Positions 3,520 to 54,328 of a stretch of DNA of 64,000 nucleotides are shown here, in pieces; position 1 is the first letter of the stretch; each line of letters opens with the position of its first letter. The translations under genes and the position numbers were made by a program. Below the pieces are notes generated by a model, which did not search any database, was not told the DNA's origin, and saw only the letters and a program-made list of their open reading frames with translations. This DNA is from Bispira polyomma (taxonomy: Eukaryota): NCBI GenBank assembly GCA_965649765.1, contig OZ287752.1:81902001-81966000 (forward strand), given 5' to 3'.

Positions 3520-3970
3520 GACATTACTTTTGATTATCCTGGGGTACATATTAATTTGAAGTGGACAAAAAACCTCCAGTCACCAGACCAAAGCCACGTG
3601 GTCAATCTACCTGTACTTAAGAATCCACTCATGTGCCCTGTGTTTAACATCAGGGGATTGTCCTAGACGTCTTACCTACCAGCAGACTCACCATTGTTTT
3701 GGACAGAGGACTATCATATCCTCACCCAGTCTATGTCGAGGCAACAAGTAGTATCAATGCTCTGAGTTTTAAATACTCCCTTGTTGGGACATGGATTTCA
3801 CACATTTAGGTGCTAAGCAGCGACTTTAGCTTATGAGAGTCTAATGTTTCCATGCAAAATATTAGAATGCATGGATGATAGGGGAGAGAGGTGGTTTGGT
3901 CGTATATCAGTCAAAATACATCTCAGTCTCACACTATCCCCCTCACCTTCCAAAGGTTAATTGACAATAC
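3520..3970 (+). pseudogene. Tyrosine recombinase C-terminal remnant of a DIRS/Ngaro-type element
   Basis: Manual translation gives GVHINLKWTKNLQSPDQSHVVNLPVLKNPLMCPV...GHGFHTFRC*AATLAY...MQNIRMHG, matching the KWSKT, CPV, FHAFRRSGAT and IQRHG motifs of the YR at 8983-9549. Contains in-frame stops. Confidence 0.8.
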
Positions 3971-5262
3971 TACTACTCACTAAATATCGCTCTTTGGTCT
4001 TTTTATCTCTATGTAAAATTAACAGATACAAGTTAACAGAATACTTTTTCCAACCCACACACTTTGATTAACTTCTCGTGAGACATCATCATCCCTTCAA
4101 TTCTCACCTAAATGGGATGAGATCTCTGACTATATGCAGAACTAACCAGCAACAAAAGAATCAAACAACTCTTAAAATAAAACATTTACACCAGCAACTT
4201 GCTGAAAATCCAACCCCCAAAACCAGCTTGCAAATCACTGTGCAGATATTACCCACTGACTTCATTTAAAGTTAGACTTTTTGTACTATATATATCCAGT
4301 CATGGCCTAGTTTATTACTAGGCCAGATTTGCATTTATTTGCGGCCGACTTTGTGTCCAGAGTGGCCACTTTTTTCTTGTTGGCAAATATTCATAAAGCT
4401 AGTAACGTATATGATTTCCATGACAATATATATGGCTATAAAAAAAATTTTGTTGAATAAAGAAAAACCCAAACCTTAGTTTCTGTCAAAGCTGAATTCA
4501 GCTTATCTGGCAATTAATGAACGTTTTCAATAAAGAAATTTATAAATATCTTTTAAAATCCAGTACAAGTCAGTATGCAGTATATATTTCTTCATTTTAA
4601 AACGACCTTCTTACACACTGCTACACTTTACTGCCCAAATCTGCTCATCTGTGAGCAGGAGTCAGATTTTCCTTATCCCCCTCCTAAGTTGTAAACCTGG
4701 TATTTAGTGGTCTTAAAACAACATCCACTGGCTCTCCTGGGGTGCATCTGCTGAAAAAGTCTAAACATTTAATGTATGTGTATATTCCTTCATGTCCAGT
4801 TTTATACAGTATAGTACACGTTTGATCATTTTATAACATACACCATTTTGAAGAAAAAGTGTTTTATACAGAATGAGCTGTAGTTTTAGTATTTATCTTA
4901 TCAGTAAGTGATTAGCACTAAATATAGTTACAATTAAATTTTCACTTTGTTTTACTAATACACAATTTAATAGAAAATAATAACCTTTCTCAGGGATGCC
5001 AGGGTAGTTAGGAGCTCTAAGAGGTGGGACCTTCCTCTGCTAGGTGAGTTGGTGCCATAGGTCCCTGGGTTCTACCCGTAGCTAATCTGGGCTATGTCGG
5101 TTTCAATTATTTAGGAAGCTTTCAAAACATGAGTAAAAACAGCAGTACAATAAAGTTTTTTTTAGAGTGATTCTTCTGAAATTTTGCGGGATGACGACCC
5201 GGGCGGCAGCAAGGTCAGTTCTCGGGTACCAGGCTAACTAATTAGCAGGCTGTTTGCAGTAG

Positions 5263-5300
5263 TATAAAAGCCGTCTTCTTTTCAAATTCTCCCGCCATTT
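5263..5300 (+). promoter_or_regulatory. Candidate TATA box plus CCGCCAT (YY1-like) element upstream of the retroelement gag
   Basis: TATAAAAG followed about 20 nt later by CCGCCATTT. A similar TATATAAG...CCGCCAT arrangement precedes the gag of copy 2 (~34837-34887). Confidence 0.35.
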
Positions 5301-5430
5301 CCGAAGTTTACAGAACAGGGAGCATTGTTAAAAAAAAGCGTGGTATCACATTTGGATTTATGTTGTTTTACTATTCTGTTTTCAGTCATTTTAGTCGGTT
5401 TTAATTTATAATTCATAGTGATGCCACGTA

Positions 5431-6446
5431 TTGCTACTGTTTATTGCTCTAAATGTCTTGGGAAACACCAACGACCTGTTTTTTCGAAACTGTAATGTTT
5501 TGGACATATCTTTGGGGAACACCAGCGCTGACTCATTTGAGGTGGACCCGTTAGATTCGGCTTCAGCTTCTAGTGAGGGAAATGTGTCCAATGCTATATT
5601 GAAACAACTACAGTCGATAAGTCAGGCAATGCAGAGTATGGATCGATGGGTTCAGCTCACTGAGGCAGCACTGGCAGGAAATTCCAACAAACAGGCTAGT
5701 ATGAATACAGTTTATAGTGTCAGTTCTGTAAACTTTGGCGATAGCCGTCAGAGTGCTGAGATACCTGAAACCAGTATTGTTCCAAATATCAAATTTCTGA
5801 AACAAAACGTGCAAATTCAAACCCAAGTTGAACAACGGCTTAAAGAGTTAAGACAAATTAATGAGAGCCCTTCACAAGGTAAGATCAAATCTCAGGAGGG
5901 GGGTCGGAAGTTCTAGTCAAACGAACTGTAGAATGGCCCCACAACCATGTCCTATCGGGTAGTACTAAAGCACGTCCTAGCTATGACGACTTAACTGTGG
6001 TTCAATGGGTGTGTGGATTTACGAGAATAATACAAGAAGAGAATAAAACTGCTATGCTCGACTACATGGCAAACTTAATGGAGGACTCTCAGGATATTTC
6101 CTGGGAGGCCGCTAAAGCTTGCCATGCAGTTGTGCTAACGAATATGGAAATGGACAAGTTGAAATGGTCCGAAGTGGAAAAGGTAGATAGAATCCACAGA
6201 GCGCATGCTCAGAGACATATCCATTTAGGCCAATCTGCTGCCGGTGTAGGGCCTCGTAATCTGGGAAATAGCCAAAAGACAAATAACTCTAAGCAGGGTG
6301 CGGTTACATGTTGTTACTTCCAGGATGGTACATGTAAACATTCTGCCAGTCATAAAACGGGTGCACAGTTTTATAAGCATACATGTGAGACTTGCGATAG
6401 TAGTCACAGAAGTAGCATGTGCCCCAAAAAGGCAGTAAAAAACTAA
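5431..6446 (+). pseudogene. Gag-like ORF1 of YR retrotransposon copy 1 (frameshift near 5900)
   Basis: ORFs 5431-5916 and 5997-6446: coiled-coil-like segment, EWPHNHV..., QWVCGF..., and a C-terminal Cys/His cluster CCYFQDGTCKH...HTCETCDSSHRSSMC. Homologous to the degenerate gag at 34975-35690. Confidence 0.75.
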
Positions 6447-7128
6447 GGGGCCACTGCACAAATGCAGTGGGTCAAAATGTGAATAATAAGGTTTTTACTA
6501 GATTTGTATATAATACGCAGTTCAATGATATGGCACTGTTTCAAAAATCGTTTGTACAAAGAACGTTTAGATATCAGAAGGGCACGAGTACTTCTATTAA
6601 GTATAGTGATGTAGTAAAGAATAGTACTAACAAGACTAATTCTATTGAAAGGCGCGTGCATAAAGTGTCAGAAAATGGTAGTACACGTAACATTGTGCAG
6701 AAGTGTAAAAAAGTAATTTCACCCGGCGTTGCAACTAAGTTAGTCGTGGATAAAACAAGTCCTATTAAGAGTGATAGTGAAAGGGGGACAAAAGGGGTGG
6801 AACAAAAACACAGAAAGTGGTGTGAACGCAATTCAACCCGAGGTGCCCTCCCACTACATAATAGGTTTTCGATTCTTGCTAACATTGAAACAATGGGGAA
6901 GGGGATAACAATCAATCTAAAATTCCCAATGCAAAAAGTGACAGAACAAAGAACAAAATACACAAAGCTTCTGTCAGGTGTAGTGAGAGTGGCAGAAGTG
7001 CCATTCACACTGGGCTTGGTAGTGTTAACACAACAAGTGCTAACATACACACAGATGACAACAATGGTGTTAGGTGGCATAAAGTCAATAAAAAGGGCCA
7101 AGGGCTTGGTGAGAGTAATGACATCAGA

Positions 7129-8496
7129 TTGCATACAGGCTTGGCTATCAAAAATGACATTCATGGGGAGGAAAATAGCAGTGAGTGCATTGTGCCTTCA
7201 AACAAATATACATGGGAATTAAAACAGAGGAAAAACAAACGTGTTCTGTTAGATCTGGCTAAAGACAATGACAATTATAAAAGTTGGCAGGCACAGAATG
7301 ACGTGGTCTATGGGTTCACACCTCTCTCTGATTTCATGACAATTGACAATACAGAAAACACAAAGGTCGAGGAATTAGACGTGTTGGAAATACATAAGCG
7401 CGTTAGGGCCTTTCGTCACGTGCCCATAGATCCCGGTGACATGGACCTGTTAGGACTAAATTGGAAAGAATAATACATAGATAAATCGCTGCAGTTCGGT
7501 TATCAGAACGGCAGCACTATCTTTCAAAGAATTTCAGATGCCGTGAGGTACATTATGAAAACTGAAAATCATAACGTCCACAATTATATCAACGACTTTT
7601 TATGTGTCTCGCTTCCTAGTAAAATATAGAAAACGTATGTGAGATTACAAGAACTTTTGACTGTCAGTGAAAAAAAAATAGTACACCCTGGCACCTCTGT
7701 GGTTTGCCTTGGTATTACTATATACACAGTTAATTTCACCACGTCAATTCCACCTGAGAAATTACAGAAAATTAAAAACGTCTGCAAAGCATGGGAAACA
7801 AAGAATGTTTGTACTAAACGTGAACTCCAATCCTTATTGGGCCTGTTACTCTACGTTTCGAAATGTATAAAGTATGCAAGGGCGTTCCTGAATCGTATGC
7901 TTCAGTTGTTGAGAGACAACCACACCAGTAAACGCATAAACATAACCCTGGAATTCAGGAGGGATTGAAATTGGTTCTCTGTGTTTATACAGCAATTCAA
8001 TGGCGTTTCCATTTTCTCTCATATTCCAATCACAGCCCAAGTAGAGCTTGACGCATGTCTAACAGGTATGGGGGGGGGGGGGGTGTATTAAGATCAAGTG
8101 TATCAATTAAAACTCCCGACTCATATGACTGAACTAAATATAGTATACCTAGAAATGTTGAACATACTGGTGGCCATCAAACTTTGGGCTACGCTCTGGC
8201 AAAATAAACGTGTGCTAATTAAGTGTGGTAATCAAGCAGTTGTTAACGTGCTGCAAAGTGGATGCACTAGGGACCACACACTAGCCACCTATACACGCAA
8301 TATTTATATGCTCGCCAGTAAACTTGACATTGACATTAAAGTCATTCACATTTTGGGGGCTAAAAATAAAGTAGCAGATCTATTGTCCAGATGGACTGAT
8401 ACTACCCGAGATCACCAAATATTGCATGACTTGGTAGGGCCTGTCCAATGGTTGCCCGTGCATGATTCATTGCTAAGTGTTAATGAGAACATATAA
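7129..8496 (+). pseudogene. Reverse transcriptase and RNase H of YR retrotransposon copy 1 (stops, frameshifts, N-terminal RT deletion)
   Basis: AFRHVPIDPGDMDLLG, QFGYQNGSTIFQRISDAV, NYINDF (YxDD-like), CLGITI, ELQSLLGLL...ARAFLNRML. RNase H motifs ELDAC, LEMLNI, CGNQAVV, NKVADLLSR. Confidence 0.88.
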
Positions 8497-8523
8497 CTAA
8501 ATATGGTATAGTATATATTGCAG

Positions 8524-9549
8524 GCATTCACCCAGGAGAACTCATGCTGGCTAGACAGGCTTGTGAGAGAGTCCACAGGGCCTTCTCTCTCTCCACTTCT
8601 AGGGCGTATGATAGAATGTTTAGGACCTTCATAGCTTTTGGGGTGTTCATAGACTGGAGCCCGAAAAAGGTGAATGTATTGCAGTTGCTCTCCTATTTAG
8701 AGTTCTTGCACAGTAATAAAGTCTCAGCTTCACAAATTCCAAATCACCTTTCTGCTATAAAGGCTAAATGTATATTATTTCATGTACAAGTAGAAGCGTT
8801 TTCTGATAGCAGAATTAAGTACTTTAATAAGACATTGGCTGTCAGTAAACCGTTACAGGCAATATTGAAGTCATTGTTTGATATCACACTGCTGGAGAAA
8901 TTGGTTGAGAAATGCAATGTGACTTATATGGGATTAATATTCAAAGCAGTATATTTAACTAGTTTTTTTCATTTTCCTGCATTTGTCAAATCTGTGCCTC
9001 CATTCTGTTAGGGCTTTTGACCCCCTGAAGCAGCTAGCACGCGCTGATGTCATGTTTAAATCAGGTTATGCTGTTACATTGGTGAAATGGTCAAAAACCC
9101 TTCAAACCAGAGATGTTGTCAAGCTTCTAACCATTCCAGCCCTTCCTGGTTCCAGCATCTGCCCGGTTGCAGCTATCAAAAATGTTCTGGGAATAACTCC
9201 TAAAGGGGCCAATCTGTCCCTTTTTCAGTTCAAATGTAGGCAAAATTGGGTTCCCCTCACTGATTCCAAAGTACGTAGACATTTAAAAAATGTCCTTCAA
9301 ATGCTTGGCTGTGAGTACACAGGCCTCAATTTTCATGCTTTCAGACGTTCAGGTGCCACGTTTGCATTCAATAACAATGTCAGAGTACAAGACATACAGA
9401 GACATGGCACCTGGACGTCTGACTGCGTTTGGAGATATATTACTGATTCGGCAGTTGCTGGCTCCCAGGTGGCTAATTGTTTTAAGGACTCTATATTACA
9501 CAGCTCCAAGGTTATGGGGGTTTGGTGGTCTAACACTTTTCATGCTTAG
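8524..9549 (+). pseudogene. Tyrosine recombinase of YR retrotransposon copy 1 (one frameshift near 8975)
   Basis: ORFs 8544-9011 and 8983-9549: N-terminal helical binding domain, KWSKT, CPV, FHAFRRSGATFAF (HxxR), IQRHGTWTSDCVWRYI (H/W and catalytic Tyr). Confidence 0.92.
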
Positions 9550-11022
9550 AAAAATCTGGACCAAAGAATATAAATATATTCACAACAGTCAACTAGACAG
9601 TAACCAAAGTCATTACTGTCCCAGGGCATAAGGTCACCTTTAGTACCCAGTACATATTGTACTTAAAATATACGTCCAACTTAAACCCACAAATTTAAGT
9701 TGAACTTACAAAAACGTATTAAGTCGAACTGAAACTCAAATCCTCAACTTAATGCCTAAGTTTGGACTTAAAGTCAAAATTTACTTAAATTAATGTTTAA
9801 GTTTGGACTTAAAGTAAAATCTCAACTTAAACTCCTTTTAAGCCTTAGGCTATGGTAACCTTATGCCCTACCTCAAACTCTACTGTTAGTGTTTTAACAT
9901 AGTAGCTAATAAAATTATTACCGCAACCTGGGTTGATTATTTAGTTTATCATTGGTTAAATGTTAGAATCCTTTAGTATTCCCTTGGCCTGCTACACAGG
10001 GGAACTGTGTAAATATATTCTTTTTAGATCATTGTTTTGTATCAAATACATTGAAGTACACACCTTTTGGAAATATGTGCGGTTTATATCCCCTCAACAC
10101 TTGCACCACAATCAAGCCAAGGATGTGCTAGATAAACATACCTAGAGATTATCTGTAGGCATATCACTCTCAGCATGAGTTTAACTTTACTGAGATAAGG
10201 CCAGAGTAGGGCATTCCTTTAACTGGGCAGTAGGGTAGCAGTGAATACACATGAACACATCACTTGTCCGGTTTTTTCACAGCACAACTTTATATACAGT
10301 GGCCTGCATGTTTAGGCCCTCCACGCTCTCCATCTACTCCAAAATATACTGTATGAGTGGAAATATTAGCTAAAAACTAAGAAACCTACTAATTTACAAC
10401 TTGTAGGAACTGGCTGCACTGAATTCTTACTACAGGTGAGTTTACTTGAAACAGTAGTACAACTACTATAATCTTGTACCCTAAGATATCGTCTCTCATA
10501 GCACTTTAATTATCAGTGGAGAAATATAGCGCAAAATAATTCCTGGCAAAAATGTCCAACTTTACAGCAAATATGCCGATTCTAATGTGTGTAGTTAGGA
10601 GTGGTTTTACTATTTCCGGCTTTCTGGTTACAGAGCATTTAAGGTAGCAACTAAAATTCATAAAAGTAGTAAACAATTATACATTTGTTTAATATTCACA
10701 GCTATTCAAGGGGAATGACTACTTAATAATTTCAAATGCATTCTGAAAGCTAATTCACCAAGATAAATCTTCAGAAGCTATTTTTAAGGGCCTTTTTGTA
10801 ATGTTCAGCCATCTTGGATTTAACAGGAAATCACCTAGTTCTATATTTATCTAGATATCTCAAAAAAACTATAATTCAGACCTATTTTCTTTTATACTGG
10901 AATGTCAGGTTAGGATTGGTGTTCAATTTGATATATGATTTGTATCCAGCTCTTCACCGGACTTTGGTATAACTGCAAAGGCTAAAAGATATTATGTAAC
11001 AAAATTAATAGTGCTCTGACTC

Positions 11023-11507
11023 CTATGGAGCCCTTAATAGGACATCAATATATATTTTTTATTTTATTAAGTGGTGATCACCAGATGATGTGGTGATCAC
11101 CACTTATTAAGTGATGCACACGAGATGATAATTATCTGGTGATCACCAGGTGATCTCATGCTCACGACTTATCGAGTGGTGATCACTAGATGATGTGGCG
11201 ATCACCACTTATTAAGTGGTGAGCATGAAATGATCTGGTGATCACGACTTATTAAGTGGTGAACAAAAGATGATGTGGTGATCACTAGATAATTGTATTA
11301 AGTGGTGATCACCAGATCATCTGGTGCTCACCACTTAATAAGTCGTGATCACCAGATCATCTCGTGCTTACCACTTAATAAGTCATGAGCACAAGATCAT
11401 CTGGTGATCACCACTTAATAAGTCGTGAGCACAAGATTATTTCGTGCTCACCACTTAATAAGTGAAAAATATATATATATATTGATGTCCTAATAGGGGC
11501 TCTGTAG
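11023..11507. mobile_element. Foldback/MITE-like element with ~38-bp TIRs and an internal tandem array that reverses orientation
   Basis: CTATGGAGCCCTTAATAGGACATCAATATATA at the left end is the reverse complement of TATATATTGATGTCCTAATAGGGGCTCTGTAG at the right end. The interior is made of CACTTATTAAGTGGTGATCACCAGATGAT-type units, then their reverse complements. Confidence 0.8.
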
Positions 11508-13288: not shown

Positions 13289-13559
13289 TTATGGAAATCC
13301 ATTAGAACCAACATTAAAGTAAAAGAAATGGGGTTTATTTCCCGTTTAAAAAATACTATGTTGTTATCATTGTGATAGTAAGTCATAATAACAAGATACA
13401 TATCTCGTAATTACGAGATACTAAGTCATCAATACCAATATTTTATGAGTCATTTAAAAACCAGAAACAAAATTTATAAGTTGTAATTATAAGATAGATT
13501 TTCTTTAAAAAAAAGAACAAAATTATTCTATTTACGTTGTTACTAATGGGTTTCCATAG
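13289..13559. mobile_element. MITE with short TIRs and degenerate internal repeats
   Basis: TATGGAAATCCATTAG...CTAATGGGTTTCCATA termini with internal CTCGTAATTACGAGA-like motifs. The right portion recurs at ~37440-37604. Confidence 0.6.
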
Positions 13560-14311
13560 AATGCTGATCTGGAATGCAGATATACAGCAATTGACTCTAT
13601 GATCATGGATGTTTAAAAACAAGCAATGTAAAAAATAACAATAGGAGGTATTTGTATTGCCTCATAAAATGAGATCACAAATTCACATCACATCAAATGT
13701 TATGCATTGAATTACACAGTAATTTGGGACAATTTCAGTCATATTTATGCTCATCTTCTATATTAGTAGCACACCAAGCTACATGGTGGTACCCACACAT
13801 TGCAATTTAGTTAAACAAACACATTTTTTTGAGTAACATGTGAAAGACGTAAACTGTAATTTTTTTAAACTTAGGACTGACCTACTTAGACTTAAAGATA
13901 ACGTGCAATTAAGTGCACACTAAATAAAAGTTATATTGGTATTCCATACCGCACTGAATGAATTATACATAAAATATGGCTGTACTATGTAATAAATTTT
14001 AAGTAAATCCTGTACTCTTGTTTTACTTCTTGCCAGTAAGTATCTTATAATTATCAGTACGTAATAAATATGCAGGCTTAATATGTGTGTGGACTTTCAT
14101 TTCCGATTGAAGGCATATATTTCATTATTTCGCCAATTGCATGCTGCCATTGTTATACTGCTAGGTTTATAAAGCTATTGGCGGTATCACTACAATATTT
14201 CTTCTCTGAAAAATAAGGTAGAATGCTGCGTAAATTTATTGGGATACACTCATATCACAAATTACAGTAGAACCTCTGTTATCTGAACATTATTGGAGAG
14301 CAAGAGTTAGT

Positions 14312-14553
14312 TAGTTAGTGGTTAGCAAGCATTGCGCTTCACAATCACTGGTCTCTCACCTCTGGGTGGTGTGAGTTCGAATCCTGTCGATGCCTATGTG
14401 GGAAAGGTGGTAGTTCCTTACTGGGGGCCGCTGGTTTCAGTGCAGAACCTTGATCAACTGTATGCAGTGTTTCCTCCAGAGTTTCCAACTACCCGTCCCA
14501 ATATAACCTAAACGGGTACTAGAGTGGACGTTAAATATCCCAATGCAAATTCA
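14312..14553 (+). mobile_element. tRNA-derived SINE, slightly 5'-truncated
   Basis: A-box remnant TAGTGGTTAG, B-box GAGTTCGAATCC. Highly similar to 20826-21100 and 45208-45454. Absent at the paralogous site (~38390). Confidence 0.88.
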
Positions 14554-14697
14554 AGTCTGGATAGTTAAGGAATTTCTGTACAATGTAATAGGAAAACAGA
14601 TAGATAGGGGAGAGTAAGAAAGGAGTTCATCAAATTGTATAGTTCCGATAAGAGAGGATCTACTTTACTGGTAATTTGTTGGTGAAGAGATTACTAG

Positions 14698-14913
14698 TAG
14701 AGTAAGGAATCTAAAATTTGCCACGGTATCTGAAATGTAAAATTTCAGCCAAATCAATAAAAACTGCGCGAAAAATAACTGGAATTTAAGTAAGGCAAAA
14801 TAATCACACAAAAAACTCAATTTCAGCAAATATTATCCACAATTCTACCCAAAAAAAAATTTTCTAGGTGGCGAATTTCAGATACAGTGGCAAATTTTAG
14901 ATTCCTTACTCTA
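14698..14913. mobile_element. MITE with ~40-bp TIRs
   Basis: TAGAGTAAGGAATCTAAAATTTGCCACGGTATCTGAAAT is inverted at the right end. The empty site TTACTAGTAATAC is present in the duplicate (~38535). Confidence 0.85.
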
Positions 14914-15067
14914 GTAATACAAGATCAATTTTACACTAGGATATGAGTTTTCACTGATCAGAAAAATAGCTACAATTAAATCCTTCTAAAAACGTCCAAT
15001 TTTACAGTATGACCTTGTTTTATTGAAGAAATTTGAGGTATAATCAGCCATCCCAAACCATAGCATC

Positions 15068-18000
15068 ATGACATCAAATGTGGAAATGCAGAATTTTATG
15101 GATCAGGAGAAACAACAACCGCTTATCTCCCCACCTCAGCCGCAAGGTAATAAAAATTACATTTAAATATGGTTTAAAAAGATAGCCTGCCACCTTTAGT
15201 TAAGGGTGACTTTGTGATGTTAAAAATATCAGCCGAATCTATTACTATGGATTTGAAAAGTATGGTAAATTTAAAATGTTAGTATTGTGCTAATAAAAAA
15301 AACTACTTAAGGGTTTAATAACGTAAACACATAAACTGATCCCCGATGAACAGTATAACACTAAGAAGATCTTCTTCGGAAATTACATATAGTTTAATTA
15401 TACACTGATTTAAATATTTTGAGTGTCAACCTAATAAGGATTTTATGACATCAAATACATCTAGCAAAATGTAAAATTGTAGTAAAAATGGTTTATATTT
15501 AACCAGTACATGCTTTAAAAACGTGACACAACTCGCATACAAAGAAGGAATCAGTATCAAAGTAAAGGATGTTTTGCTTTAAAAATTGCACAAGCTGCCT
15601 ATTGAGTGCCGAATTAAATTCAAGTTAAATGCCCTCATTTTTACCACTGCCCGTGTGCAGCAGCCTGCCTACTTATCATCTATGCTGTCTCTGAGCTGTC
15701 TTACCAGAGGAAATCTTCTCTCCACCTCTGGCTTCTTACCCAAAAAAACTGGCTAATTCAAAACCAGTCAAGTAACACCTGGTGATTGGAATAGTCTCAC
15801 CACTAGTCTACACACTGAAACAAAGGTCACAGACTTCAGGAAAAATCTCAAAACACATCTCTATCAACTCGCTTTCCCACCTTAACGTTCGTTTGCTGAT
15901 CACAACTAAACTCTGATCACGAACCTTTTTTCCTGTCATACTATTCTATGTGCGAGAATGCCTGGTCATCATTTGTGGCGCAGTAAGTAAAAACATTAAT
16001 TTTAATATACATAACTAAAAAGAAGAAGACTTCACCATTATTTTACATGATTTAGAGTTTCTTAATATGGTTAACATTGTTACTGAAGAACAGTTTCATG
16101 ACCTTTATAGTGTGTATATGGGCTTCAAATAAATATAGTAAATGCAGAATGACGTTTCGGGGGTTTAATTGAGTGTTTACGTTACTTAACCCTTAAATAG
16201 AGAGACATTATTGAACAGTTATATGTCTCTGTATTGTGTAGATTTTTGTTTCGAATATGACCAAGAATGTACCCTAAGTTAGACCGGTTAGGAAATGAAT
16301 GTTTAATATAAATTACCAGACTTAATATCAAACTGAAGCATTGTCAGGTAGAGGATGAAAGTATTTACTACTTACCACAAGAAGATCACATTTAGTATAA
16401 AATATTCATTCGAGGATTCAACTGTGCAACATCTTGGTCTGATCTCAATTTAACCTTTAACCTTGGAAAAATGGCCGGGACCTAAACCTGCTAATTGTGT
16501 GAACTAGATCTAAGGAGCTAAATATTACAGAAAGTTCATATTTTGTTCAAATATTCATTGGACAGCACAGTTGAGCACGGTTATCATTTGACCTCATTTT
16601 GACCTAGGAACCCCACAAGAATTTCATAGTAAAAATTAATTGCCAGTGGTATCCTGCTTAATATTTAGAGATCACCACTCTGTGTCTATTATGATTTTGC
16701 CTAAGAATTTTTTTTCACTGTGCTTCGACTAACTTCCATTATCCAAATATTCAATTTTATGAACTCAATCTAACTCTCCCAAATTTATGTTTTCCTATTT
16801 TTTTATACTTTCTGCCTCTTCTATTTTATGAACCTTTTATTATTCGAACCAAATACTGTTCTCCCATCATCTTTGGATAATAGAGGTTTTACTGTATATA
16901 TATATATATATTCATATATATTGTAGAAACGAACCCAGTGGCCACCCCTCCTAAAGGTGACACTAAAAGAAAGCGTCCAACATGGGACCAAAAGAATAAC
17001 CCTATTGAGTTCCTAAGTACAACCTTGGGATACCTTGTAGGTGTAAGTGTTCTGATACGGATGCCATACATGATATACAGCCACGGAGGTATCGTCTTCT
17101 TGGTACAATATCTGATGTCACTACTCTTGTTTGGATTTCCAGTACTCTTACTAGAGATGTACATTGGACAGTTTACCAGCAATGGGATTTTGACTTGCTG
17201 GGAGATGTTTCCTCTGTTTACTGGAGTGGGCTATGCTATGTTGATTATCTGTATTGTCACATCTTCATCCTATGCAGTGATCAACGCCTGGTCAGTATAT
17301 TATGCCTTCGCCAGCTGGGTGAGCCCTCTACCTTGGACAACATGCGATAATGCTTGGAATACTGACAAGTGCTGGCTTCCCGAGCATGAAGGAACATACA
17401 ACTACTCCGACCAATACAATGATTATGGGAATATCAAAAAGGTGAATCCTTCAGTGGAATATTGGCAACACGAATTTCTGAGACTGGGAGATGAAGCAGG
17501 TGGGCCACTTTGGTACATTGCTCTGCCTCTGTTGGGAACATGGATTATTGTGGCACTTATTTTGTTGTTTGGTCCAAAGGTATATGGTAAAGTTGCCTAT
17601 GTAACCACTCTTCTGCCTTACGTTATTGCTGTTGTCCTTTTTCTTAGATTTGCAACACTCCCAGGTGCTTTTCTAGGACTGCAGTTCCTTTTTTATCCCA
17701 ATATCACATATTTTGCAAAGTCCACATCTTGGATGGCTGCAATTATATCAGCGTTTTTTCACATGGGAATTTCTGTAGGACCGATTATCACCCTGTCCTC
17801 GTACAATAAATTCAGAAATGACCTTGTCCGAGATGCTTTTGTGCTTACTATAGCTCAATTTGTGAGTTGTATTGGTTATGCCATGCTGGTTTTTGCTCTC
17901 TATGGTTTTATAGCTGAAAACAATGGGCAGCCGATTAATGAAGTTGTAGGAGGTGGTGTGGCAGGTCTATTCACAGCTATGGCTAGTGGCTTTGGCTCTT

Positions 18001-18743
18001 TTGTTGGTTCCCAGTTCTGGTGTTGCTTATTTTACCTTATGGTCGCACTTATGTGTACCAGGTCTCTGCTGGCCATGGCAGAGACTGTAATTACTGCTAT
18101 ACTGGACCTTATACCCAGACTTCTCCGTGTCCGGTACATTGTGGCTATTTGTGTCTGCTTTGTCTTGTTTCTGTTAGGACTGCCGTATACGCTTCATATT
18201 GGGTATGCATTCTTCATTGCAATCGATAGCTCTATATACCTTAACATGACATTGGTAGGTCTCATGGAGGTAGTTTGTGTGGCCTTCATGTATGGTGTTT
18301 TCTCTTATACCTTTACCAATCATGCCTTGTTCCGCTTTAAGGATGATTTGAGCTTGATGTTTGGTGGTAAGGCCTGCCATTGTATTCCCTGGGTGATCTG
18401 CTGGCCCTTCTGGGCCTTTATGTGGTGCATTGTGGTCCCCCTGATTTTACTGGTTTGCTGGATCTTGAACCTTCAAGATGGGCCCTCAAGTTTAGGTTAC
18501 TTCGAGATAAGTCAGAGCCTGAAAATGTTTTGCTTTTTCGTAATGCTGTCTCCAGTGCTAGCCATGCTTATTACCCCAGCCGTCTTTCTTTGTATAAAAT
18601 GTATCAAAAACATTCGTCTATCCAGGGGACTGGAGTACCTCATTAAACCTTCCAGGCATTGGGGGCCAGCTTTACCCGAGGACAGAGAGGGAATGAGTGG
18701 ATATTTACCAAACAACAAATTTGAAATTGATCCATGGCAATAG
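15068..18743 (+). CDS. SLC6/NSS (sodium:neurotransmitter symporter family)-like transporter, copy A; two coding exons, about 631 aa
   Basis: Exon 15068-15146 (MTSNVEMQNF...PQPQ, phase-1 donor G|GTAATA) joins in frame to exon 16927-18743 (TTGTAG acceptor). SLC6 hallmarks: R.TW...IEF, RMPY...GG..FL, LLEMYIGQF, PLFTGVGY, LPWTTCDNAWNT..C, GKVAYVT..LPY, TLPGA..G, LSSYNKFRND, ETVITA..D, WGP. About 12 hydrophobic segments. Exon 1 is conserved in the duplicate. Confidence 0.93.
15570..15990 (+). mobile_element. CR1/L2-clade LINE 3' fragment in the SLC6-A intron
   Basis: Translates as LKKLHKLPIECRIKFK...WNSL...FRKNLKTHLY, the typical L2 ORF2 C-terminus. Confidence 0.7.
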
Positions 18744-22887: not shown

Positions 22888-25800
22888 TTAAAGTTTTCTT
22901 CCATTACTAGAATAAATATTGCTAACAAGTCTTTTCTGGTCTTCCATATCAAATCCAATACCGTGCAGATAGTTGGATACTGAATTGTATCTGAAATAAC
23001 AAAAAAATATCAACTAAAACATTTTGCTCATCACATGTGTGGTCAAGAATGACTAAACTATATCAACACATATTATATAATCACCTCAACATACCACCTC
23101 CTTCCAACAAGATACTGTCTCATTACCTCAACATACCACCTCCTTCCAACGTACTGTCTCATTACCTCCACATACCACCTCCTTCCAACAACATACTGTC
23201 TCATTACTTTAACATACCACCTCCTTCCAACAAGATACTGTCTCATTACCTCAACATGCCACCTCCTTCCAACAAGACACTGTCGCATTACTTTAACATA
23301 CCACCTCCTTCACACAAGATACTGTCGCATTACTTTAACATACCACCTACTTCCAACAAGATACTGTCTCACTACTTTAACATACCACCTACTTCCAACA
23401 AGATACTGTCTCATTACCTCAACATACCACCTACTTCCAACAAGATACTGTCGCCTTACCTCAACATACCACCTACTTCCAACAAGATACTGTCACATTA
23501 CCTCAACATACCACCTCCTTCCAACAAGATACTGTCTCATTACATCAACATACCACCTACTTCCAACAAGATACTGTCGCATTACCTCAACATACCACCT
23601 ACTTCCCACAAGATACTGTCTCATTACCTCAACATACCACCTCCTTCTAACAAGATACTGTCTCATTACTTTGACATACCACCTCCTTCTAACAAGATAC
23701 TGTCTCATTACCTTAACATACCACCTACTTCCAACAAGATACTGTCTCATTACTTTAACATATCACCTCCTTCCCACAAGATACTGTTGCATCACGTCAA
23801 CATACCACCTCATCCACACAAGATACTGTCTCATTACCTCAACATACCACCTACTTACTACAACATATGATCTCATCCCCACAAGGTACAATCTCATACT
23901 CTCAAAATACCATCTCATCCCCACAAGATACAATTTCAGTCCCTCAACAACAACTTCATCCCCACAACATACATTCTCACTCTCACAAGACACCACTTCA
24001 TCCCCACAAGATACCACCTTAACCTTACAAGATATTATCTCATCCCCACTAAATATCATCATGGTTCCCACAAGCTTAAGTACTCCCAACCTACTTTTCC
24101 TCTATATATTCCAGAAGTGCTTCCATGGTGCTGTACTTGGCCCCTCCAAATGAGGGAAGAAGGCCGTGTTCTTGAATGTCTCTATCTATTTCTTCCCTAT
24201 GAGCTTGTCTGCTTTCCTATATTAAAATAGATGGAACAGACTTTCTTTAGTATAGTATCTGTCATGGATTAGAACATTATGATTTTTATCTCAGTAGACA
24301 CCTCTTAATTTACACCTCTGTATTTCACAGAATCACTAAAAATCTGCAATCTGCTGACATTACTATAAGCAAGTGAGGAGGCTACATTTCATAATGGCTT
24401 CATATAATATCAAAAAGCCATTTGTAACCTCTGCTAGTGAATTGCCCTTCTTCCAGTCACCCATTCATACTTTTACTCTTGTCTCTATAGTAGTAGTTAT
24501 ATTTTATATTCCGATATTATATCAATTTATTGTTATTTTAACTTGCTCGGAATAAAGAATGTGAAATAATATAATGGATTTTAACACAATACAGCAAAAA
24601 CAATAGCACTCAGTAGGATGCACCCCTGCGCCATTGGATACAAAATCAACAGGGTTTGTGTTTTACTTACAGACCTAGGCTTCTCTTAAAGATGGCATAT
24701 CAAAAATAGCTTAATAACCTATTTAACCAAAACACATATTTCTTAGAAGGTATACCAGGTAAATACTCATTAATGCACACAGTAAGTACTTAGCTTTATA
24801 CAAATCTATTCTAAAATTTAGTGGTTTCTTCCTTAGCCCTCGCTCTCCAACAGAGTTTATTGAAAATTAGTTTGCATAACCCTGCTACAAACAAACGAAC
24901 AGACAGCCACTAAAACATAACCTCCTTGGTGGAGGTAAAAAACCCAAACCTCTGTTTTACTGTATTCCAGTGCAATCATGTGTTTATCTGCCCCACACAG
25001 CCCCATCAGCAAGGCCGAAATGATCCCTGTACGATCTTTTCCATGAGCACAACACACAATCCCAGGTACATTCTCAGGATAACACATGACATGGAGTACT
25101 GAAAAATAAGCACAGCAGAGCAAAAATACAGCAGTGTGAACAGTCAGAGGATAGAATCTATTAGTGAGGCAACTTTGCATAATGATAATGACCCTGTCTA
25201 TGTTCTAGGACACATCGTTGGTTGATTGATTCGGTTTTTGCACTTTAGAAGATGTCTCTTCTTTATTCAATCTCATCTAGCACACTGTACTTCTATCTTC
25301 ACTACCTGACTAAGATAATTGGCTCTTACCCAAATTTATTGGTCCCTGAAATATTTGGGCAATTGTTTCATGCCCAAAAAACAAACTCCAAGATCAAAGG
25401 TCATTGAGGTCAGACATTGCATCACTTACCCAAACTCCAAGATCAAAGGCCGTGCAGAGATCAGACACTGCATTAATTAACCAAACTCCAAGATCAAAGG
25501 CCATGCAGAAGTCAGATATTGCATCACTTAACCAAACTCCAAGATCAAAGGCCATGCAGAGATCACACATTGCATCAATTAACCAAACTCCAAGATCAAA
25601 AGCCATGCAGAGGTCAGATATTGCATCACTTAGACAAACTACAAGATCAAAGGCCATGCAGAGATCACACATTGCATCACTTAAAATGTCCAATGGTCCA
25701 AATAATAAGTCTATTTTGACAAGAGGATTACAGATCAATCCAAGACGGGCCTTATGAAAACATAGGGACAATCTAAATTACCTTTCTCTATATTCAATTC

Positions 25801-34829: not shown

Positions 34830-37440
34830 TTGCCATTATATAAGAGGGACGTTATCAGGCTTTTTATATGATTTTCACACCGCCATCCGGTGTCTTTTCT
34901 TGAAATTCTGACAAATTATCCTCTGATTTAATAGTCACATATATCAAGACAGCCCTATCCTATATTTCAAAGATATGGCGCCGAGAAAAACTTATGATTG
35001 TGAGGCATGTGGTGGACACCATCAAAAGCCTATAAACGAGAAATGTAAAGTGATTATTAAAGAAACGGACAGTGTTTCTATAGTGAACAGTGCATCAGAC
35101 TCAGGGAATATCTCGTCAAATGAGATAAACCTGTATGGATAAATTCAAACTAAAAATGGTAACGCAGCCTGATAGGGAACAAACTAGTGTCATCACAGTG
35201 AGTTTCTAGGCATTGTAGGTTCCGACACCAGTGGCAGTTTCGAGGACAACCCAGTTGAGCAACACCGTGGTACCGTCCTTGCAGACCTTGAATCTACTGA
35301 CCTACAGGCAGCTGTGAACACCAGACTGCGAGAGTTATAACAGGCAAATGAGTCAGGTATGTTCCGGTCACAACAGGGCGGCCAGGACACAATATGGGTG
35401 AGATGTAACTCATTGTCCAAAGCTTAGTCGGTAGCTTGATTCAGCTCCATAATTAAAGAAGAGACAAACATTGAAACGAAAAATCAAATGCTCAAATATA
35501 TGTTTTAATTGAGGACTTTCACAATTTCTCTTGGGTGGCGTAAGGAAGCCATGCGGTATTAACTTGTAAAATGGAAGAGGAGAAATTGTCTTGGAAAGAC
35601 ACCTAAAAAATCGACAGGGTCAGAAGAGCTCATGCTAAAACAATTCTGGGGCAAAATTCAGGCTCGGGGGCACCCAAGAGAAATAGTGAGAAATGTAAAT
35701 GTTACTAGAAGGGTTCTTGGGACTTCCATCTGCAAGGTTATTGGGATAAACAGCTACTGTTCCTAATCAGGTATGGTTTTCCCTTGGATTGTCACAAAAG
35801 TAAACCACTTTCGCATAAAGAAGAAAATCGTAAGTCGGCAATTGACTACCCAGATGATATAAAGCATATTTATAAGAAGAATCCAAATTTGGGGCCATGT
35901 TGGGTCTGTACTCAGCACCTCCATGTAAGGACTTGCATGGGTCACATTGCATGACCCGAGAAAAGCCTGGGGCTTCCCATAGAAGGGTGATAATTGATTT
36001 GAGCTTTCCCCAGGGAAACTTTGTATAATCTGCTTGGCCTAAAACTAGACCAGTTGATACAAGTCTCTCTTTCGAGTATTAGCATGGAAACACCATTTTC
36101 CAGCGTCTCAGTGACACGGTTCGCTGTGTCATGCAATGTCACAACTGTGACATCATCAACAATATAGACTATTTTTTTTTATATCGGATATGGCATTCCC
36201 TCCAAAATTCAACACTCATTTGATCTATTACATTCCGTTCTACATGATCTCGGTTTTGATATTAGTGAAAAAATAATTGTATTTCCCAGCGCACAGGTAA
36301 TCTGTCTGGGCACACTCATAGACACTGAGAATTTTATAGTTTTAGTGCCTAAAGAAAAATTGCATGAAATCATTCCCTTGTGCAAAGCCTGGCAAGGCAA
36401 ACATACCTGCAAAAAACGTGACCTTCAGTCACTACTATGAAAACTGTTATATATTTCCAAATGTGTCAGGGTCTCCAGGGTGTTCCTGAATAGAATGTTG
36501 GAGGTACTAAGGTCAGCCTACAGTGCACACATCATTAATTTAGGAATTGACTTCAGTCAAGACCTTTACTGGTTTTGCCAATTTTTACCACCCTTTAATG
36601 GCAAAGCATTCTTCGATCACAGGGCAATCACGGATTGCATAGAACTTGACGCCTGTGTTGAAGGTCTAGGGAGACGCTGTAATGGTCAGGTTAACAAAAA
36701 GCAAATCCCCAAGGGGTATAATAGCTACCATATAACCCACCTCGAAATGTTGAATATACTAGTCACGGTTAGGCTCTGGAAGAAGCAATGGCGTGGTAGG
36801 TGTTTGCTTACACACTGCGATAACAAAGCGGTAGTTACAATACTCAACACTACTCAACTCAACTCACGATCGTACCTTGGCCGCCCTGGCTAGAAACATA
36901 TATATGGAGACGGCAATATCAGCTTATTCATGTCAACAATTCATATGCTAGTTAAAAATAATTTGGTGGCTGACCTCTTATCTAGATGGCACAGACAGTC
37001 ACACTAGGTTAGCCCAGCACATACCGGAACCCCAGTGGGTACAGGTGGAGGACAATATAAATTGTTCTATTTAATTGCAGGTCTCCCTCCTCAACTTGAA
37101 CATTTGGCAGCCATGGCTGCCTCCAGGGCTCACCAAGCTTTTACACTATCCACTCATAAAGCATACACAAACATGTTCAGAGTTTTTCTTGTTTTCATCT
37201 GTTTCACAATGGTTAGAATACAAAGTATTACTCCACTAGTTATACTCTCTTTTCTGGAAGTACTAGTCACAAGTAATGTATCAAATTCGTCCATTGTCAA
37301 TTACTTGTCAGCAATAAAGGCCAAAATGGTATTGTTTGGCCTGGATACATCCTGCTTTGCTAATCAGCGCATTAAGTACTACCAAAAAGCAATAGTGCTC
37401 AATAAACTATTCAGGGCAAAGCTTAAAAGTGTAATATCGT
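34830..37440 (+). mobile_element. Tyrosine-recombinase retrotransposon (Ngaro-like), copy 2, degenerate and 3'-truncated
   Basis: Gag start at 34975 MAPRKTYDCEACGGHHQKPINEKC. RT N-terminus YWDKQLLFLIRYGFPLD...MTREKPGASHRRVIIDLSFPQG (35737-36025). RT/RNase H FLNRML...IELDAC...ITHLEMLNI...HCDNKAVV...VADLLSRW. YR N-terminal half 37081-37440, ending where the duplicated segment begins. Confidence 0.88.
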
Positions 37441-38658
37441 AGTATCGTAATTACGTGATACTAAATTGTAACAAGATAAAAAATCTTGAAATTGGAACCT
37501 AAATATTTAAAAACCAAAAATGAACTTTATAAGTCGTTATTTTGAGAGGTTTCCTTCAAAAACAAACAAACAAATTCTTTACTATGTTACTAATGGTTTC
37601 CATAAAATAATGACCTGGACCTCAGCAGCTATAGTGATACACAGTATATGTTGTAATTGACTCTATCATCGTGGATGTTTGAGCACTGTGATAAATAACA
37701 ATATAGTGGGGGCGGAGGTATTATGTATTGCCTTATAAAGGACATCACAAACCCACATCACGTTAAATGGTTATGCATTAAATTACAAAGTAATTTGGGA
37801 CAATTTCAGTCAGATTGATCCTCATCTTCTATATTAGTAGCACACCAAGCTACATGGTGGTACCCCACACATTGTAATTTAGTTAAATAAACAAATTTTT
37901 TTTAGTAACATGTTAAAGATTTAAACTGCATTTTTTAAACTTAGCACTGACCTACTTAGACTTAAAGATAAAGTGCAATTAAAATGCACACTAAATAAAA
38001 GTCATATTGGTATTCTGTATTGCACTGAATGAATTATATGAGAAATATAAATATACTGTGTAATGAATATTAAATAAGTCCTGTACTCTTGTTATAGATT
38101 TTGCCAGTAAGTATAGTATAATTATCAGTGTGTTATAAATATGCAGGCTTAATATGTGTGTGGACTTTAATTTCCGATTGAAGGCAAATATTTCATAATT
38201 ATGTGAATTGCTTGCCTTCACTTTTATACTGCTATGTTCACACAGCTTTTGATGCTATCACTACAATGTTGCTTCTCTGACAAATAAGGTAGAGTGCTGC
38301 ATATATTTATTGGGATACACTCATATCACAAAGTACAGTAGAGCCTCTGTTATCTTATTGGAGAGTATGAATATTATTGGAGAGCAAGATCTTGTCTGGA
38401 TAATTATGGCATTTCTGTATAACATAATAGGAAAACAAATAGGGGAGAGTAACAAATGAGTTTATAAAATTAAATAGTCTGATAACAGAAGTTCAGATAT
38501 TAGAGGATCTACTGGCAATTTGTTTGTAAAGGTATTACTAGTAATACAAGATAAACTTTGCACAAGGATATGAATTTTATGAAAACGTCCACTTTTACAA
38601 TATGACCTTGTTTTATTGAAGAAACTTCAGGTAGAATCAGCAATCCCCGGACCATAGC

Positions 38659-41600
38659 ATGATGACATCAAACGTAGAAATGCAGAATTTCATAGATCAG
38701 GAGAAACAACAACCGTGTATCTCCCCACCTCAGCCGCAAGGTAATCAAAGTTTCATGTAAATATTGGTTAAAAAGAAAGCCTGCCACCTTTAGTTAAGGG
38801 TGACTTTGTGATTTTAAAAATATCAGCAAAAACTGTTACTATGGAGACAAAGTGCGACATGGTCTGATTAGATTAGATTAGAAAACTATGGTAAATTTAG
38901 AATGTTGGTGTTATGTTTATAAGATGAAGAACTTAAAGGTTTAGTAAAGTAAACACATAAACTGATCGCCGAGGAACAGTTTAACATTGGGTCTTAAACT
39001 CAATGGATGTATTATATAAATCTACATTTTTGGTAGTGGAAATACCAAAGAATTATATATAGTTTAATTATATGCTGATTTAAATATTTTAATAAGGATT
39101 TTATCTAGCAAAGTGTAAAATTGTTGCAAAAATCATTTATATTTAACCAGTACATGCTTGACAAACGTGACACAACTCACTAAGAAGAGGAATCAATACC
39201 AAAGTAATATAAGGTCTGCTTAAGAATTGCAATGGCTGCCCATAAAGTTCCTTATTTTTAAAACTGTCGCAATAAAAATTAATATAGAAAAGAGGAATAC
39301 TTCACCATTATTTTACATGATTTAATTTTATTTAATATGGTTAACATTGTTACCGAAGAACAGTTTCATAACCTTTATATTTATGTGTATATGGGCTCCA
39401 AATAAATATAGTAAATGCAGAGTGACGTTTCGGGGGTTCATTTGTGTGTTTACGTTGCTTAATCCTTAAATAGACATTCTTGAACAGTTATATGTCTCTG
39501 TATTGTGTAGATATTTGTTTCTAATATTACTAATATTAAAAAGATTGTCCCCTAAGTTAGACCATTTAGGGAATAAATGTTGAATATAAATTACCAGACT
39601 TAATACCAGCCTTAAGCATTGTCAGGTAGAGGGTGAAAATATTTACTACTTACCACAAAAAGATCATATTTAGTATAAATATTAATTCGAGGGTTCAACA
39701 AGGGATATAAATATGCAACATCATAGTCTGATTTCATTTCGACCGTGGAGTAATGACCTTTTTATCTTATGTTCACTTGATCTCACTGTTTCAACCTCAT
39801 TTTGACCTAGGAACCCCACAAGAATTTCATAGTAAAATTTTTTTCCCAGTGGCATCCTGCTAAATATTTAGAGATCACCACTCTGTGTCAATTTATGATT
39901 TTGCCTAAGAATTTTGTTTCCTTTTTTTTTACTGTGCTGCAACAAACTACACACACACACATATATATATATATAGATATATATATATTTAAGCCATATA
40001 TATATATAGATACCCATATATATATATATATATGTGTGTGTGTGTAGTTTGTTGAAGCACAGTGAAAACAATATAAATATATATATATATATAGTAGAAC
40101 CTCTATTATCCAAAGTTCCATTTTCGAAATATTCAATTTTATCAACTCACTTTCCCAAATATATGTTTTCCTAATGTTTTATTCTGAAATACCTCTTCTA
40201 TTATATGAACCTTTTATTAATCAAACAAAATACTGCTCTCCCATCATCTTTNNNNNNNNNNNNNNNNNNNNNNNNNNNNNNNNNNNNNNNNNNNNNNNNN
40301 NNNNNNNNNNNNNNNNNNNNNNNNNNNNNNNNNNNNNNNNNNNNNNNNNNNNNNNNNNNNNNNNNNNNNNNNNNNNNNNNNNNNNNNNNNNNNNNNNNNN
40401 NNNNNAATGGCAACCCCTCCTAAAAGTGACACTAGAAGAAAGCGTCCAACTTGGGACCAAAAGAATAACCCAATTGAGTTCCTGAGTACAACCTTGGGAT
40501 ACCTTGTAGGTGTAAGTGTTCTGATACGGATGCCATACCTGATATACAAACATGGAGGCATTGTCTTCTTGGTACAATATCTGATGTCACTACTTTTCTT
40601 TGGATTTCCAGTACTCTTACTAGAGATGTACATTGGACAGTTCACCAGTAATGGGATTTTGACTTGTTGGGAGATGTTTCCTCTGTTTACTGGAGTAGGC
40701 TATGCTATGTTGATTATCTGTATTGTCACAGCTTCATCCTATGCAGTGATCAATGCCTGGTCAGTATATTATGCCTTCACCAGCTGGGTGAGCCCACTAC
40801 CTTGGACAACGTGCGATAATGCTTGGAATACTAAGAAGTGCTGGCTTCCTGAGTATGAGGGAACACACTACTACTCGGACCAGTACAATGATTATGGGTA
40901 TGTCAAAAAGACGAATCCTTCAGAGGAGTATTGGATAAATGAATTCCTGAGACTGAGAGATGAAGCAGGTGGGCCACTTTGGTACATTGCTCTGCCTCTG
41001 TTGGGAACATGGATTATAGTGGCACTCATTTTGTTGTTTGGTCCAAAGGTATATGGTAAAGTTGCCTATGTAACCACTCTTCTGCCTTACCTAATTGCTG
41101 TGGTCCTTTTGGCGAGATTTGTAACACTCCCAGGTGCTTTTAAAGGCCTGCAATACCTTTTTTACCCTAACATCCAATATTTTGCGAATGCCAGATCTTG
41201 GATGGATGCAATTCTATCAGCTTTTTGGAACATGGGCATTTCTGTAGGACCGATTATCACCCTGTCCTCGTACAATAAATTCAGGAATGACCTTGTCCGA
41301 GATGCTTTTGTGCTTACTATGGCCCAATTTGTGAGCTGTATTGGTTATGCCATGCTGGTTTTTGCTCTTTATGGTGTTATAGCTGAAAACTATCAGCAAC
41401 CAATGGATGACATTATAGGAGGTGGTGTGTCATTTCTATTCACAGCTATGGCTAGTGGCTTTGGATTTTTTGTTGGTTCCCAGTTCTGGTGTTGCTTATT
41501 TTATATTATGGTCGCACTGATGTGTACCAGAACTCTGCTGGCCATGGCAGAGACTGTAATTACTGCTATCCTGGACCTGATACCAATATTGCGCCAGGTT

Positions 41601-42176
41601 AGGTACATTGTGGTCATTTTTGTCTGCTTTGTCTTGTTTCTGTCAGGACTGCCATATACGCTTCATATTGGGTATGCATTCTTCAATGCAATTGATAGCT
41701 CTATATACGTTAACATGACATTGGTAGGGCTCATGGAGGTAGTCTGTGTGGCCTTCATGTATGGTGTTTTTTCTTATACCTTTACCAATCATGCCTTCTT
41801 ACGCTTTAAGGATGATTTGAGCTTGATGTTTGGTGGTAAGGCCTGCCATTGTATTCCCTGGGTGATCTGCTGGCCCTTCTGGGCCTTTATGTGGTGCATT
41901 ATGGTCCCCCTGATTTTACTGGTTTGCTGGATCTTGAACCTTCAAGATGGGCCCTCAAGTTTAGGTTACTTTGAGATAAGTCAGAGCCTGAAAATGTTTT
42001 GCTCTTTCATGATGCTGTCTCCAGTGCTAGCCATGCTTATTACCCCAACCGTCTTGCTTTGTATAAAAAGTATCAAAACCAGGAGTCTATCCAGGGGACT
42101 GGGGTACCTCATTAAACCGTCCAGGTATTGGGGGCCTGCTTTACCTGAGGACAGAGAGGGAATGAGTGGATATTAG
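38659..42176 (+). CDS. SLC6/NSS-like transporter, copy B; two coding exons (acceptor hidden in the N gap)
   Basis: Exon 38659-38740 (MMTSNVEMQNFIDQEKQQPCISPPQPQ, G|GTAATC) and an uninterrupted ORF 40407-42176 collinear with copy A, 12 aa shorter at the C-terminus. Confidence 0.9.
40252..40405. other. Assembly gap (N run) covering the SLC6-B splice acceptor
   Basis: Run of N. The equivalent interval in copy A (16874-16936) is a (TA)n tract plus the acceptor. Confidence 1.
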
Positions 42177-51327: not shown

Positions 51328-51436
51328 GGGGCCGTATTCACGAAGGGACTTAACCAGGTCTTAGGCTTAAATCAGTATACTTTTGTGCTAGATTTAAGCC
51401 TAAGACCTGGCCAAGTCCTTTCATGAATACAGCCCC
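51328..51436. mobile_element. Hairpin MITE (PIF/Harbinger-like termini)
   Basis: GGGGCCGTATTCACGAAGGGACTTAACCAGGTCTTAGGCTTAAATC arm, inverted after a short loop. Second copy at 54220-54328. Confidence 0.8.
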
Positions 51437-53982: not shown

Positions 53983-54219
53983 CTGGTGGGTAATCTTTAA
54001 ACTGTATGTTTTGGTGCACTATTAAAGTCGGGTCTACAAACACATTGGAAATATAAATTCATACAATATAATACATTTTTTTTATGAATTGGAATATTCA
54101 CTTAGATTTTAGAGATTCTGTGTACATAGAATTATTGATATTAAGATATTATTTTGAGATAAAAACTTCTACGAATATTGCATCACCTGATCAATATTAT
54201 CTTTAATTATTAATTGTCT

Positions 54220-54328
54220 GGGCCTGTATTCACAAAGGGACTTAGCCAGGTCTTAGGCCCAAATCTAGCACAAAAGTACACTGATTTAAGCCTAAGACCT
54301 GGCTAAGTCCCTTCGTGAATACGGCCCC
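54220..54328. mobile_element. Hairpin MITE, second copy in the opposite orientation
   Basis: Same arms as 51328-51436, with the loop reverse-complemented. Confidence 0.8.

Follow-up and report, generated by a model that had tools for sequence, protein, structure and literature searches.

The window analyzed here, a stretch of 64,000 nucleotides (nt) from Bispira polyomma (assembly GCA_965649765.1, contig OZ287752.1, positions 81,902,001 to 81,966,000 of the forward strand), contains two defective retrotransposon copies with a gene for a tyrosine recombinase (YR). Copy 1 (5190-10008, + strand) is decayed and carries a gag-like open reading frame (ORF1), reverse transcriptase (RT)/RNase H and YR, all on the + strand. 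Copy 2 (34975-37442, + strand) is truncated, and its YR is 43% identical to that of copy 1. In gene order and in the missing methyltransferase both copies fit Ngaro-like YR retrotransposons. Comparison with relatives indicates that the family probably makes YR from a spliced mRNA, fused to the first 110-190 residues of Gag. The features of copy 1 are the following, with a slash marking a splice junction.

5190..5330 (right border approximate), + strand: likely repeat A1, the 5' end of copy 1 (from the junction in contigs X2/X3 and read depth)
5263, + strand: TATAAA in the copy 1 5' end (motif position)
5421..5878, + strand: coding part of predicted exon 1, the Gag N-terminal module with Cx2Cx3H finger, long helix and QxxVxxRL helix (frameshift near 5490; after the model of relative L013)
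5876..5885, + strand: splice donor AAG/GTAAGA, phase 1 (rank 1 of 66 GT sites)
5879..8523, + strand: predicted intron of 2645 nt, with the Gag core, C-terminal fingers, RT and RNase H inside
5883..6446, + strand: Gag core (WP..YDDL..W) and C-terminal Cys/His fingers (profile from the gags of seven relatives, E value 4e-40)
6416..8496, + strand: pol, comprising RT and RNase H behind an N-terminal region that is long and variable, with several stops and frameshifts (Pfam, also on intact relatives)
6437..6473, + strand: slippery heptamer A-AAA-AAC (6437-6443), then the gag stop and a hairpin (6448-6473); -1 frame open from 6416
8497..8524, + strand: acceptor TATTGCAG/G (8523; phase 1 relative to the YR frame), preceded by branch-like CTAA (8497-8500)
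8524..9549, + strand: predicted exon 2, YR with SAM-like and catalytic parts (frameshift near 8985-9010)
9500..10008 (left border approximate), + strand: likely repeat B in the 3' region (junction and depth)

The corresponding features of copy 2 are as follows.

34975..35356, + strand: predicted exon 1, spanning finger to QAAVNTRL helix and interrupted by stops
35354..35363, + strand: donor CAG/GTATGT, phase 1 (rank 1 of 48 GT sites)
35357..37080, + strand: predicted intron of 1724 nt, holding a decayed gag core, RT and RNase H
37057..37081, + strand: acceptor TAATTGCAG/G with its pyrimidine tract (best site, score 14.6)
37081..37442, + strand: N-terminal part of YR, where the element is truncated

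A preliminary description of the window had noted splice signals in both copies and read them as producing, by splicing, a fusion of the Gag N-terminal part to YR (Gag-N/YR). The signals are confirmed, with donor CAAG/GTAAGA after 5878 and acceptor TATTGCAG/G at 8523 in copy 1, and donor TCAG/GTATGT after 35356 and acceptor TAATTGCAG/G at 37080 in copy 2. Their claimed phase match holds: relative to the gag frame the two donors are phase 1, and so are the two acceptors relative to the YR frame, where the reading across the acceptors is IAG-IHPGELMLARQA in copy 1 and IAG-LPPQLEHLAAMA in copy 2. Each donor is the highest-scoring GT in its gag region (1/66 in copy 1, 1/48 in copy 2). The CTAA branch-like motif described for copy 1 is present at 8497-8500, and the branch-like pattern is unmatched upstream of the copy 2 acceptor. 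As described, the copy 1 acceptor stands just past RNase H, 27 nt downstream of its stop. The N-terminal Cx2Cx3H finger had been credited to copy 2; it is indeed there, but it is not a trait of copy 2 only, since copy 1 has the finger too (ATG 5421), separated by a frameshift from the remainder of exon 1. Neither copy could make the fusion today: both are broken by stops and frameshifts, and the sequence of copy 2 breaks off within YR. The 5878/8524 joint was absent among the 15 joints listed out of 44, from three runs (at most two samples, one study) whose reads look like genomic DNA and are uninformative on splicing or intron-less copies.

A YR protein search returned 52 proteins with 38-65% identity, and a profile of 49 of them returned 31 metagenome loci with 26-39% identity. 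Gene models of Glandiceps talaboti and Mytilus coruscus, from a profile search, are the closest named relatives. The 26 loci that kept the YR N-terminus were analyzed (five with the N-terminus missing were dropped), which with the two window copies gave 28 sequences. These cluster into 17 groups at an identity level of 60% and, as listed, into 12 at 50%. Viral and prokaryote collections yielded no relatives, a protein search with the N-terminal half of YR alone gave no matches, and in the ESM Atlas Gag-N had no usable match and full Gag retrieved only unnamed clusters. ORF1, named gag by its position, as in the literature, is complete in seven loci (316-419 amino acids), bears Cys/His fingers and is homologous to the window gag pieces. 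Six of these seven begin with Cx2Cx3H, and all seven have a QxxVxxRL-like helix, SGR, a WP..YD/ExL core and C-terminal fingers. In L011 and L030 this gag lies downstream of YR on the same contig and appears to belong to a neighbouring element.

The acceptor proved to be conserved, with its phase, in all 28 sequences. A phase-1 YAG was found 24-33 codons upstream of a fixed YR anchor residue in 28/28, mostly behind a T-rich tract, compared with a background inside YR of 3.8% of codons, or 0.32 per 10-codon window, so the placement is beyond chance. Scored with a simple home-made scheme, the best acceptor in a 40-codon window was phase 1 in 27/28, and the conserved acceptor was itself the top-scoring site in 24/28 (23 at codons 24-29 and one at 33), with a median score of 12.75 versus 10.8 in controls; control windows inside YR gave phases 57/50/50 (n=157). 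The N-terminus was alignable in 120 of 202 YR proteins, 60 of which extend 30 codons upstream. Within these 60, the dipeptide pattern [STAPLIV][GDE], encodable by YAG/G, occupied codons 24-30 in 53 (control windows, 28%), and a looser pattern was matched in 59, versus 57% of controls. A conserved acceptor for pol was not evident among five loci examined.

The donor, too, is conserved beyond the window, in seven further gags. Helix and SGR are separated by a variable linker of 24-60 residues, whose best GT was phase 1 in 7/7 complete gags and ranked 1-4 of 39-86 GT sites. It lies 13-19 codons past the QxxVxxRL motif in six gags and 36 past it in L030, where the motif is uncertain, and in all seven relatives it reads GTAA. 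Segments of the same length elsewhere in the same gags passed the donor test in 0-38% (mean, 16%). The donor codon is GGT in six of the seven, compared with 34% of other glycine codons, and CGT in L014, which indicates that the GT dinucleotide outlasts the amino acid. Five loci and both window copies hold donor and acceptor within one element, and the predicted introns of these five loci measure 2597-3926 nt. We consider the conserved donor/acceptor pair a real feature, and the fusion by splicing, as first read from the sequence, is supported.

Several observations nevertheless weigh against this interpretation. The conserved acceptor is not the top site in four of the 28 sequences: a phase-2 site outscores it in L018, a phase-1 site further upstream does so in L026 and L027, and in copy 1 it is weak and scores level with an in-phase TAG lying 12 nt upstream (8.0 versus 8.1). 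The branch-like motif occurs in 14/28 compared with a 26% background, a moderate enrichment only. The donor sample is small (seven gags and the two window copies), several donors have no G at +5, and the score weights, linker limits and donor threshold of 4.2 were fixed after the sites were known, which makes the donor figures descriptive and not a blind test. A Gag-N/YR fusion was found in 0 of 356 retrieved proteins, mostly ORF calls on genomic contigs. The profile search for fusion proteins covered 621-2000 amino acids, and the 390-620 range was covered by one single-sequence search and the best 150 of 17,824 matches. In the clusters of 10 YR proteins (ENA members), none of the members listed was longer than 367 amino acids. 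Neither a spliced transcript nor an intron-less copy was encountered in the genomic-type reads, loci and proteins covered. The splice mechanism, backed by comparative evidence and not by RNA, is well supported but unproven.

Other routes to YR were considered. It is decidedly unlikely that the YR acceptor, although real, pairs with another donor (in a 5' leader, at another place in gag, or where RNase H ends), which would give a product other than this Gag-N/YR. The acceptor evidence from 28 sequences is much deeper than the donor evidence from nine, and other gag GT sites score above the linker donor in five of seven gags, but these higher-scoring sites vary in position and phase among loci. 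The NCBI gene model P0205 joins RNase H to YR; however, no donor is conserved at the RNase H end (best phases 8/7/4 among 19 elements), and a short intron starting there was rejected on this ground. The donor search covered gag and the RNase H end. Splicing from a non-coding leader would require an ATG downstream of the acceptor, which is lacking within 8 codons in 25/28, and would leave the fixed phase unexplained.

The border between gag and pol switches its recoding signal within the family, between a -1 slippery site in three elements and an in-frame UGA in four. Copy 1, L014 (1057) and L020 (1041) have A-AAA-AAC near the end of gag and in its frame, the -1 frame running open into pol, whereas a single UGA followed by the next ORF in the same frame was found in L001 (1562), L006 (2699), L011 (2566) and L013 (1317); L030 was assigned to neither type. 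The hairpin of copy 1 has a z score of -3.9, with 0/200 shuffles folding as well. Such recoding signals are visible where gag meets pol, but not where pol meets YR. This bears on the model attributed to Poulter and Butler 2015 in PMC13003380 (2026), where the accessible text quotes a probable frameshift as the Ngaro route, and by which Gag-Pol-YR would arise when ribosomes shift to the -1 frame, or read through a stop, at the RNase H end. A -1 frame overlap of 4-52 nt between pol and YR exists in 5/19 elements, copy 1 included, and a single in-frame stop separates the two in L015 and L027. Pol and YR even form one chain in four records (P0005, P0203, P0204 and P0205), a point that also counts against splicing, but each of these is a one-member cluster. 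In 14/19 elements pol and YR do not overlap, with gaps of up to 764 nt, and a -1 frameshift into YR is impossible there because the YR frame is not open before the pol stop. An X-XXY-YYZ heptamer occurs in 0/5 pol/YR overlaps, compared with 3/8 at the gag end, and a frameshift leaves the pyrimidine tract and YAG unexplained. This route is highly improbable.

It is just as improbable that YR begins at its own start codon, from a separate 3' transcript or by re-initiation, with the splice-like signals as by-products of an A/T-rich spacer and codon bias: an in-frame methionine lies upstream of the acceptor in 8/28 and within 8 codons downstream in 3/28, but none is found in either place in 17/28, methionine positions are scattered, the own ATG that would speak against the preliminary description is not conserved in the 28 sequences, and controls inside YR have no phase preference. 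In 26/120 proteins the called YR start falls 23-24 codons upstream of the anchor, a cluster that again speaks against splicing, and some YR subfamilies may have their own start codon; the called starts nevertheless spread from 12 to more than 50 codons upstream, and the caller likely accepts GTG and TTG as well.

For the spliced Gag-N/YR, the product was considered on an AlphaFold model of the L013 ORF1 (8 sequences; mean predicted local distance difference test [pLDDT] score 67, predicted template modelling score 0.35). The model has a finger at about residues 1-30, a 42-residue helix at 62-103 and a helix at 159-177, followed by a compact helical core and the C-terminal fingers. The L013 donor, at residue 183, falls within a low-confidence linker (177-207), so the splice would cut between domains and give YR the N-terminal module and not the core. 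Since this linker is predicted to be disordered, the N-terminal finger would pass intact into the fusion, along with a predicted coiled coil. The ORF1 core was modelled at pLDDT 86, and its best structural match was an unrelated helical protein (Z 6.1, root-mean-square deviation 3.4 over 89 residues); fold searches gave no capsid or other clear match. By arithmetic, the fusion would be about 440-510 residues long in the three loci with a whole YR.

In the proposed expression programme, unspliced RNA would be translated into Gag, and into Gag-Pol by a -1 frameshift at A-AAA-AAC or by UGA read-through. The host spliceosome would perform a single GT-AG splice that removes 2.6-3.9 kilobases (kb) with the Gag core, RT and RNase H, and the spliced mRNA would encode a Gag-N/YR of about 440-510 residues with a zinc-finger motif and a predicted coiled coil. 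The N-terminal module would tie YR to Gag, via the long helix, for co-packaging with the cDNA. As neither the conserved Gag core nor the C-terminal fingers are part of exon 1, particle loading would need this N-terminal module. Co-assembly of YR with Gag through the long helix would be the most likely function and is the one preferred; DNA targeting would be an alternative role of the finger. Whether all of this forms a three-way programme general across the Ngaro-type group, with Gag from unspliced RNA, Gag-Pol by a switching recoding signal, and spliced RNA grafting the finger and coiled coil onto a start-less YR that co-assembles with Gag and travels with the cDNA, is a tentative and rather doubtful extension.

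The assignment to the Ngaro-like elements was examined by layout. In the order DIRS, this group is defined in the available portions of PMC4157794, PMC8547959, PMC13465315 and PMC6681497; the elements here agree with it, as far as those portions go, in that one strand carries a gag-like ORF1, then RT/RNase H, then YR, and in that no methyltransferase was matched; of split direct repeats they show partial signs. Pfam scans identified RVT_1/RVT_3 in the RT/RNase H ORF, followed by Phage_integrase/SAM-like in the YR ORF on the same strand, and matched no methyltransferase family after RNase H in the window or in the intact relatives. In the 19 tails listed, pol ends about 35-40 residues past the D.LSR motif. 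DIRS1-like and PAT-like elements likewise have RT/RNase H and YR, and PAT-like elements have split direct repeats and some Gag zinc fingers (PMC4157794, in the portion available); unlike the elements here, they encode a methyltransferase. An RT tree, which held no labelled Ngaro reference and from which the fragmentary window copies were left out, placed 12 loci and five protein records apart from the fish-type records, taken to be DIRS1-like by their layout.

With regard to split direct repeats, the 3' region is joined to the 5' end in family contigs, yet no full B1-A2-B2 arrangement was found, and copy 1 has no internal repeat. In contigs of X2 and X3, position 10000 (the 3' end of the element) is joined to 5190, and summed read depth is raised in the bin 5148-5321. 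A self-match search of the window detected no second A copy, and no inverted terminal match was found around copy 1, which is a decayed copy. In L006 the terminal repeats lie in 1-1267 and 7045-7754, and in L001 in 1-211 and 5288-5498, the 5' sequence recurring after YR in both; these repeats are direct and 99.5-100% identical, with no clear B1-A2-B2 order. Their near identity suggests that L001 and L006 are young elements. Insertion in tandem or in clusters is suggested by L003, L011 and L030, in which the ORF1 of a second element begins about 0.6-0.9 kb past YR. The pol N-terminus of L006 (2702-5986) is about 550 residues longer and rich in CxxC pairs ahead of RT, and L011 looks similar from 2569 onward.

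Elsewhere in the window, a third YR gene remnant, its 3' half only, is located at 3520-3980 (+), about 1.2 kb upstream of copy 1. A cluster of palindromic repeats follows copy 1 at a distance of about 1 kb (11056-11469). The repeat truncating copy 2 (37445-39500) is 73-88% identical to a stretch at 13405-16231. Two long single-ORF sodium:neurotransmitter symporter (SNF/SLC6) genes are present at 16884-18743 and 40221-42176 (+), with 619 and 651 uninterrupted codons, and an ORF of 710 codons at 56802-58934 (-) matches Roc and, weakly, COR. At 51328-54328, inverted arms of 109 nt, themselves palindromic, flank a 51-nt tandem array (about 52450-54130), a structure resembling a non-autonomous DNA element. 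The stretches 23009-24022 and 60242-63975 are occupied by tandem arrays of 42 and 201 nt.

Comparable expression strategies are known from other elements. In retroviruses and gypsy elements, the env subgenomic mRNA is made by one splice that skips gag-pol for a 3' gene, and gag and pol are joined by frameshift or read-through; here, in contrast, the 3' gene encodes a tyrosine recombinase, and the donor is placed well within the coding region of gag. In plant Ty1/Copia elements, a conserved alternative splice yields a subgenomic mRNA beside the genomic RNA; in the part of PMC5580714 available, that spliced RNA gives Gag alone, whereas here it is predicted to give the integration enzyme fused to Gag-N, with Gag coming from unspliced RNA. 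In comparison to Ngaro-like elements as represented in the accessible text of PMC13003380, most elements here are unable to use the described -1 frameshift and carry a conserved donor/acceptor pair. No description of spliced YR expression in the Ngaro-like group was found in the literature searched, which did not include the primary Goodwin/Poulter papers, the 2015 review or the Repbase notes; the novelty is provisional, as these could mention splicing.

The spliced route would replace the ribosomal frameshift so far assumed for the third ORF of YR retrotransposons, itself an untested guess. The conserved donor/acceptor pair defines an exact junction that can be checked by one RNA sequencing query. 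If splicing operates as proposed, YR has an N-terminal module of 110-190 residues that is absent from the retrieved ORF calls, which matters for biochemical and transposition assays. The spliceosome would then determine how much genome RNA there is relative to integration enzyme, as it does in retroviruses and plant Copia elements, and the three-way programme, if true, would also yield spliced copies that lack RT and are mobilisable.

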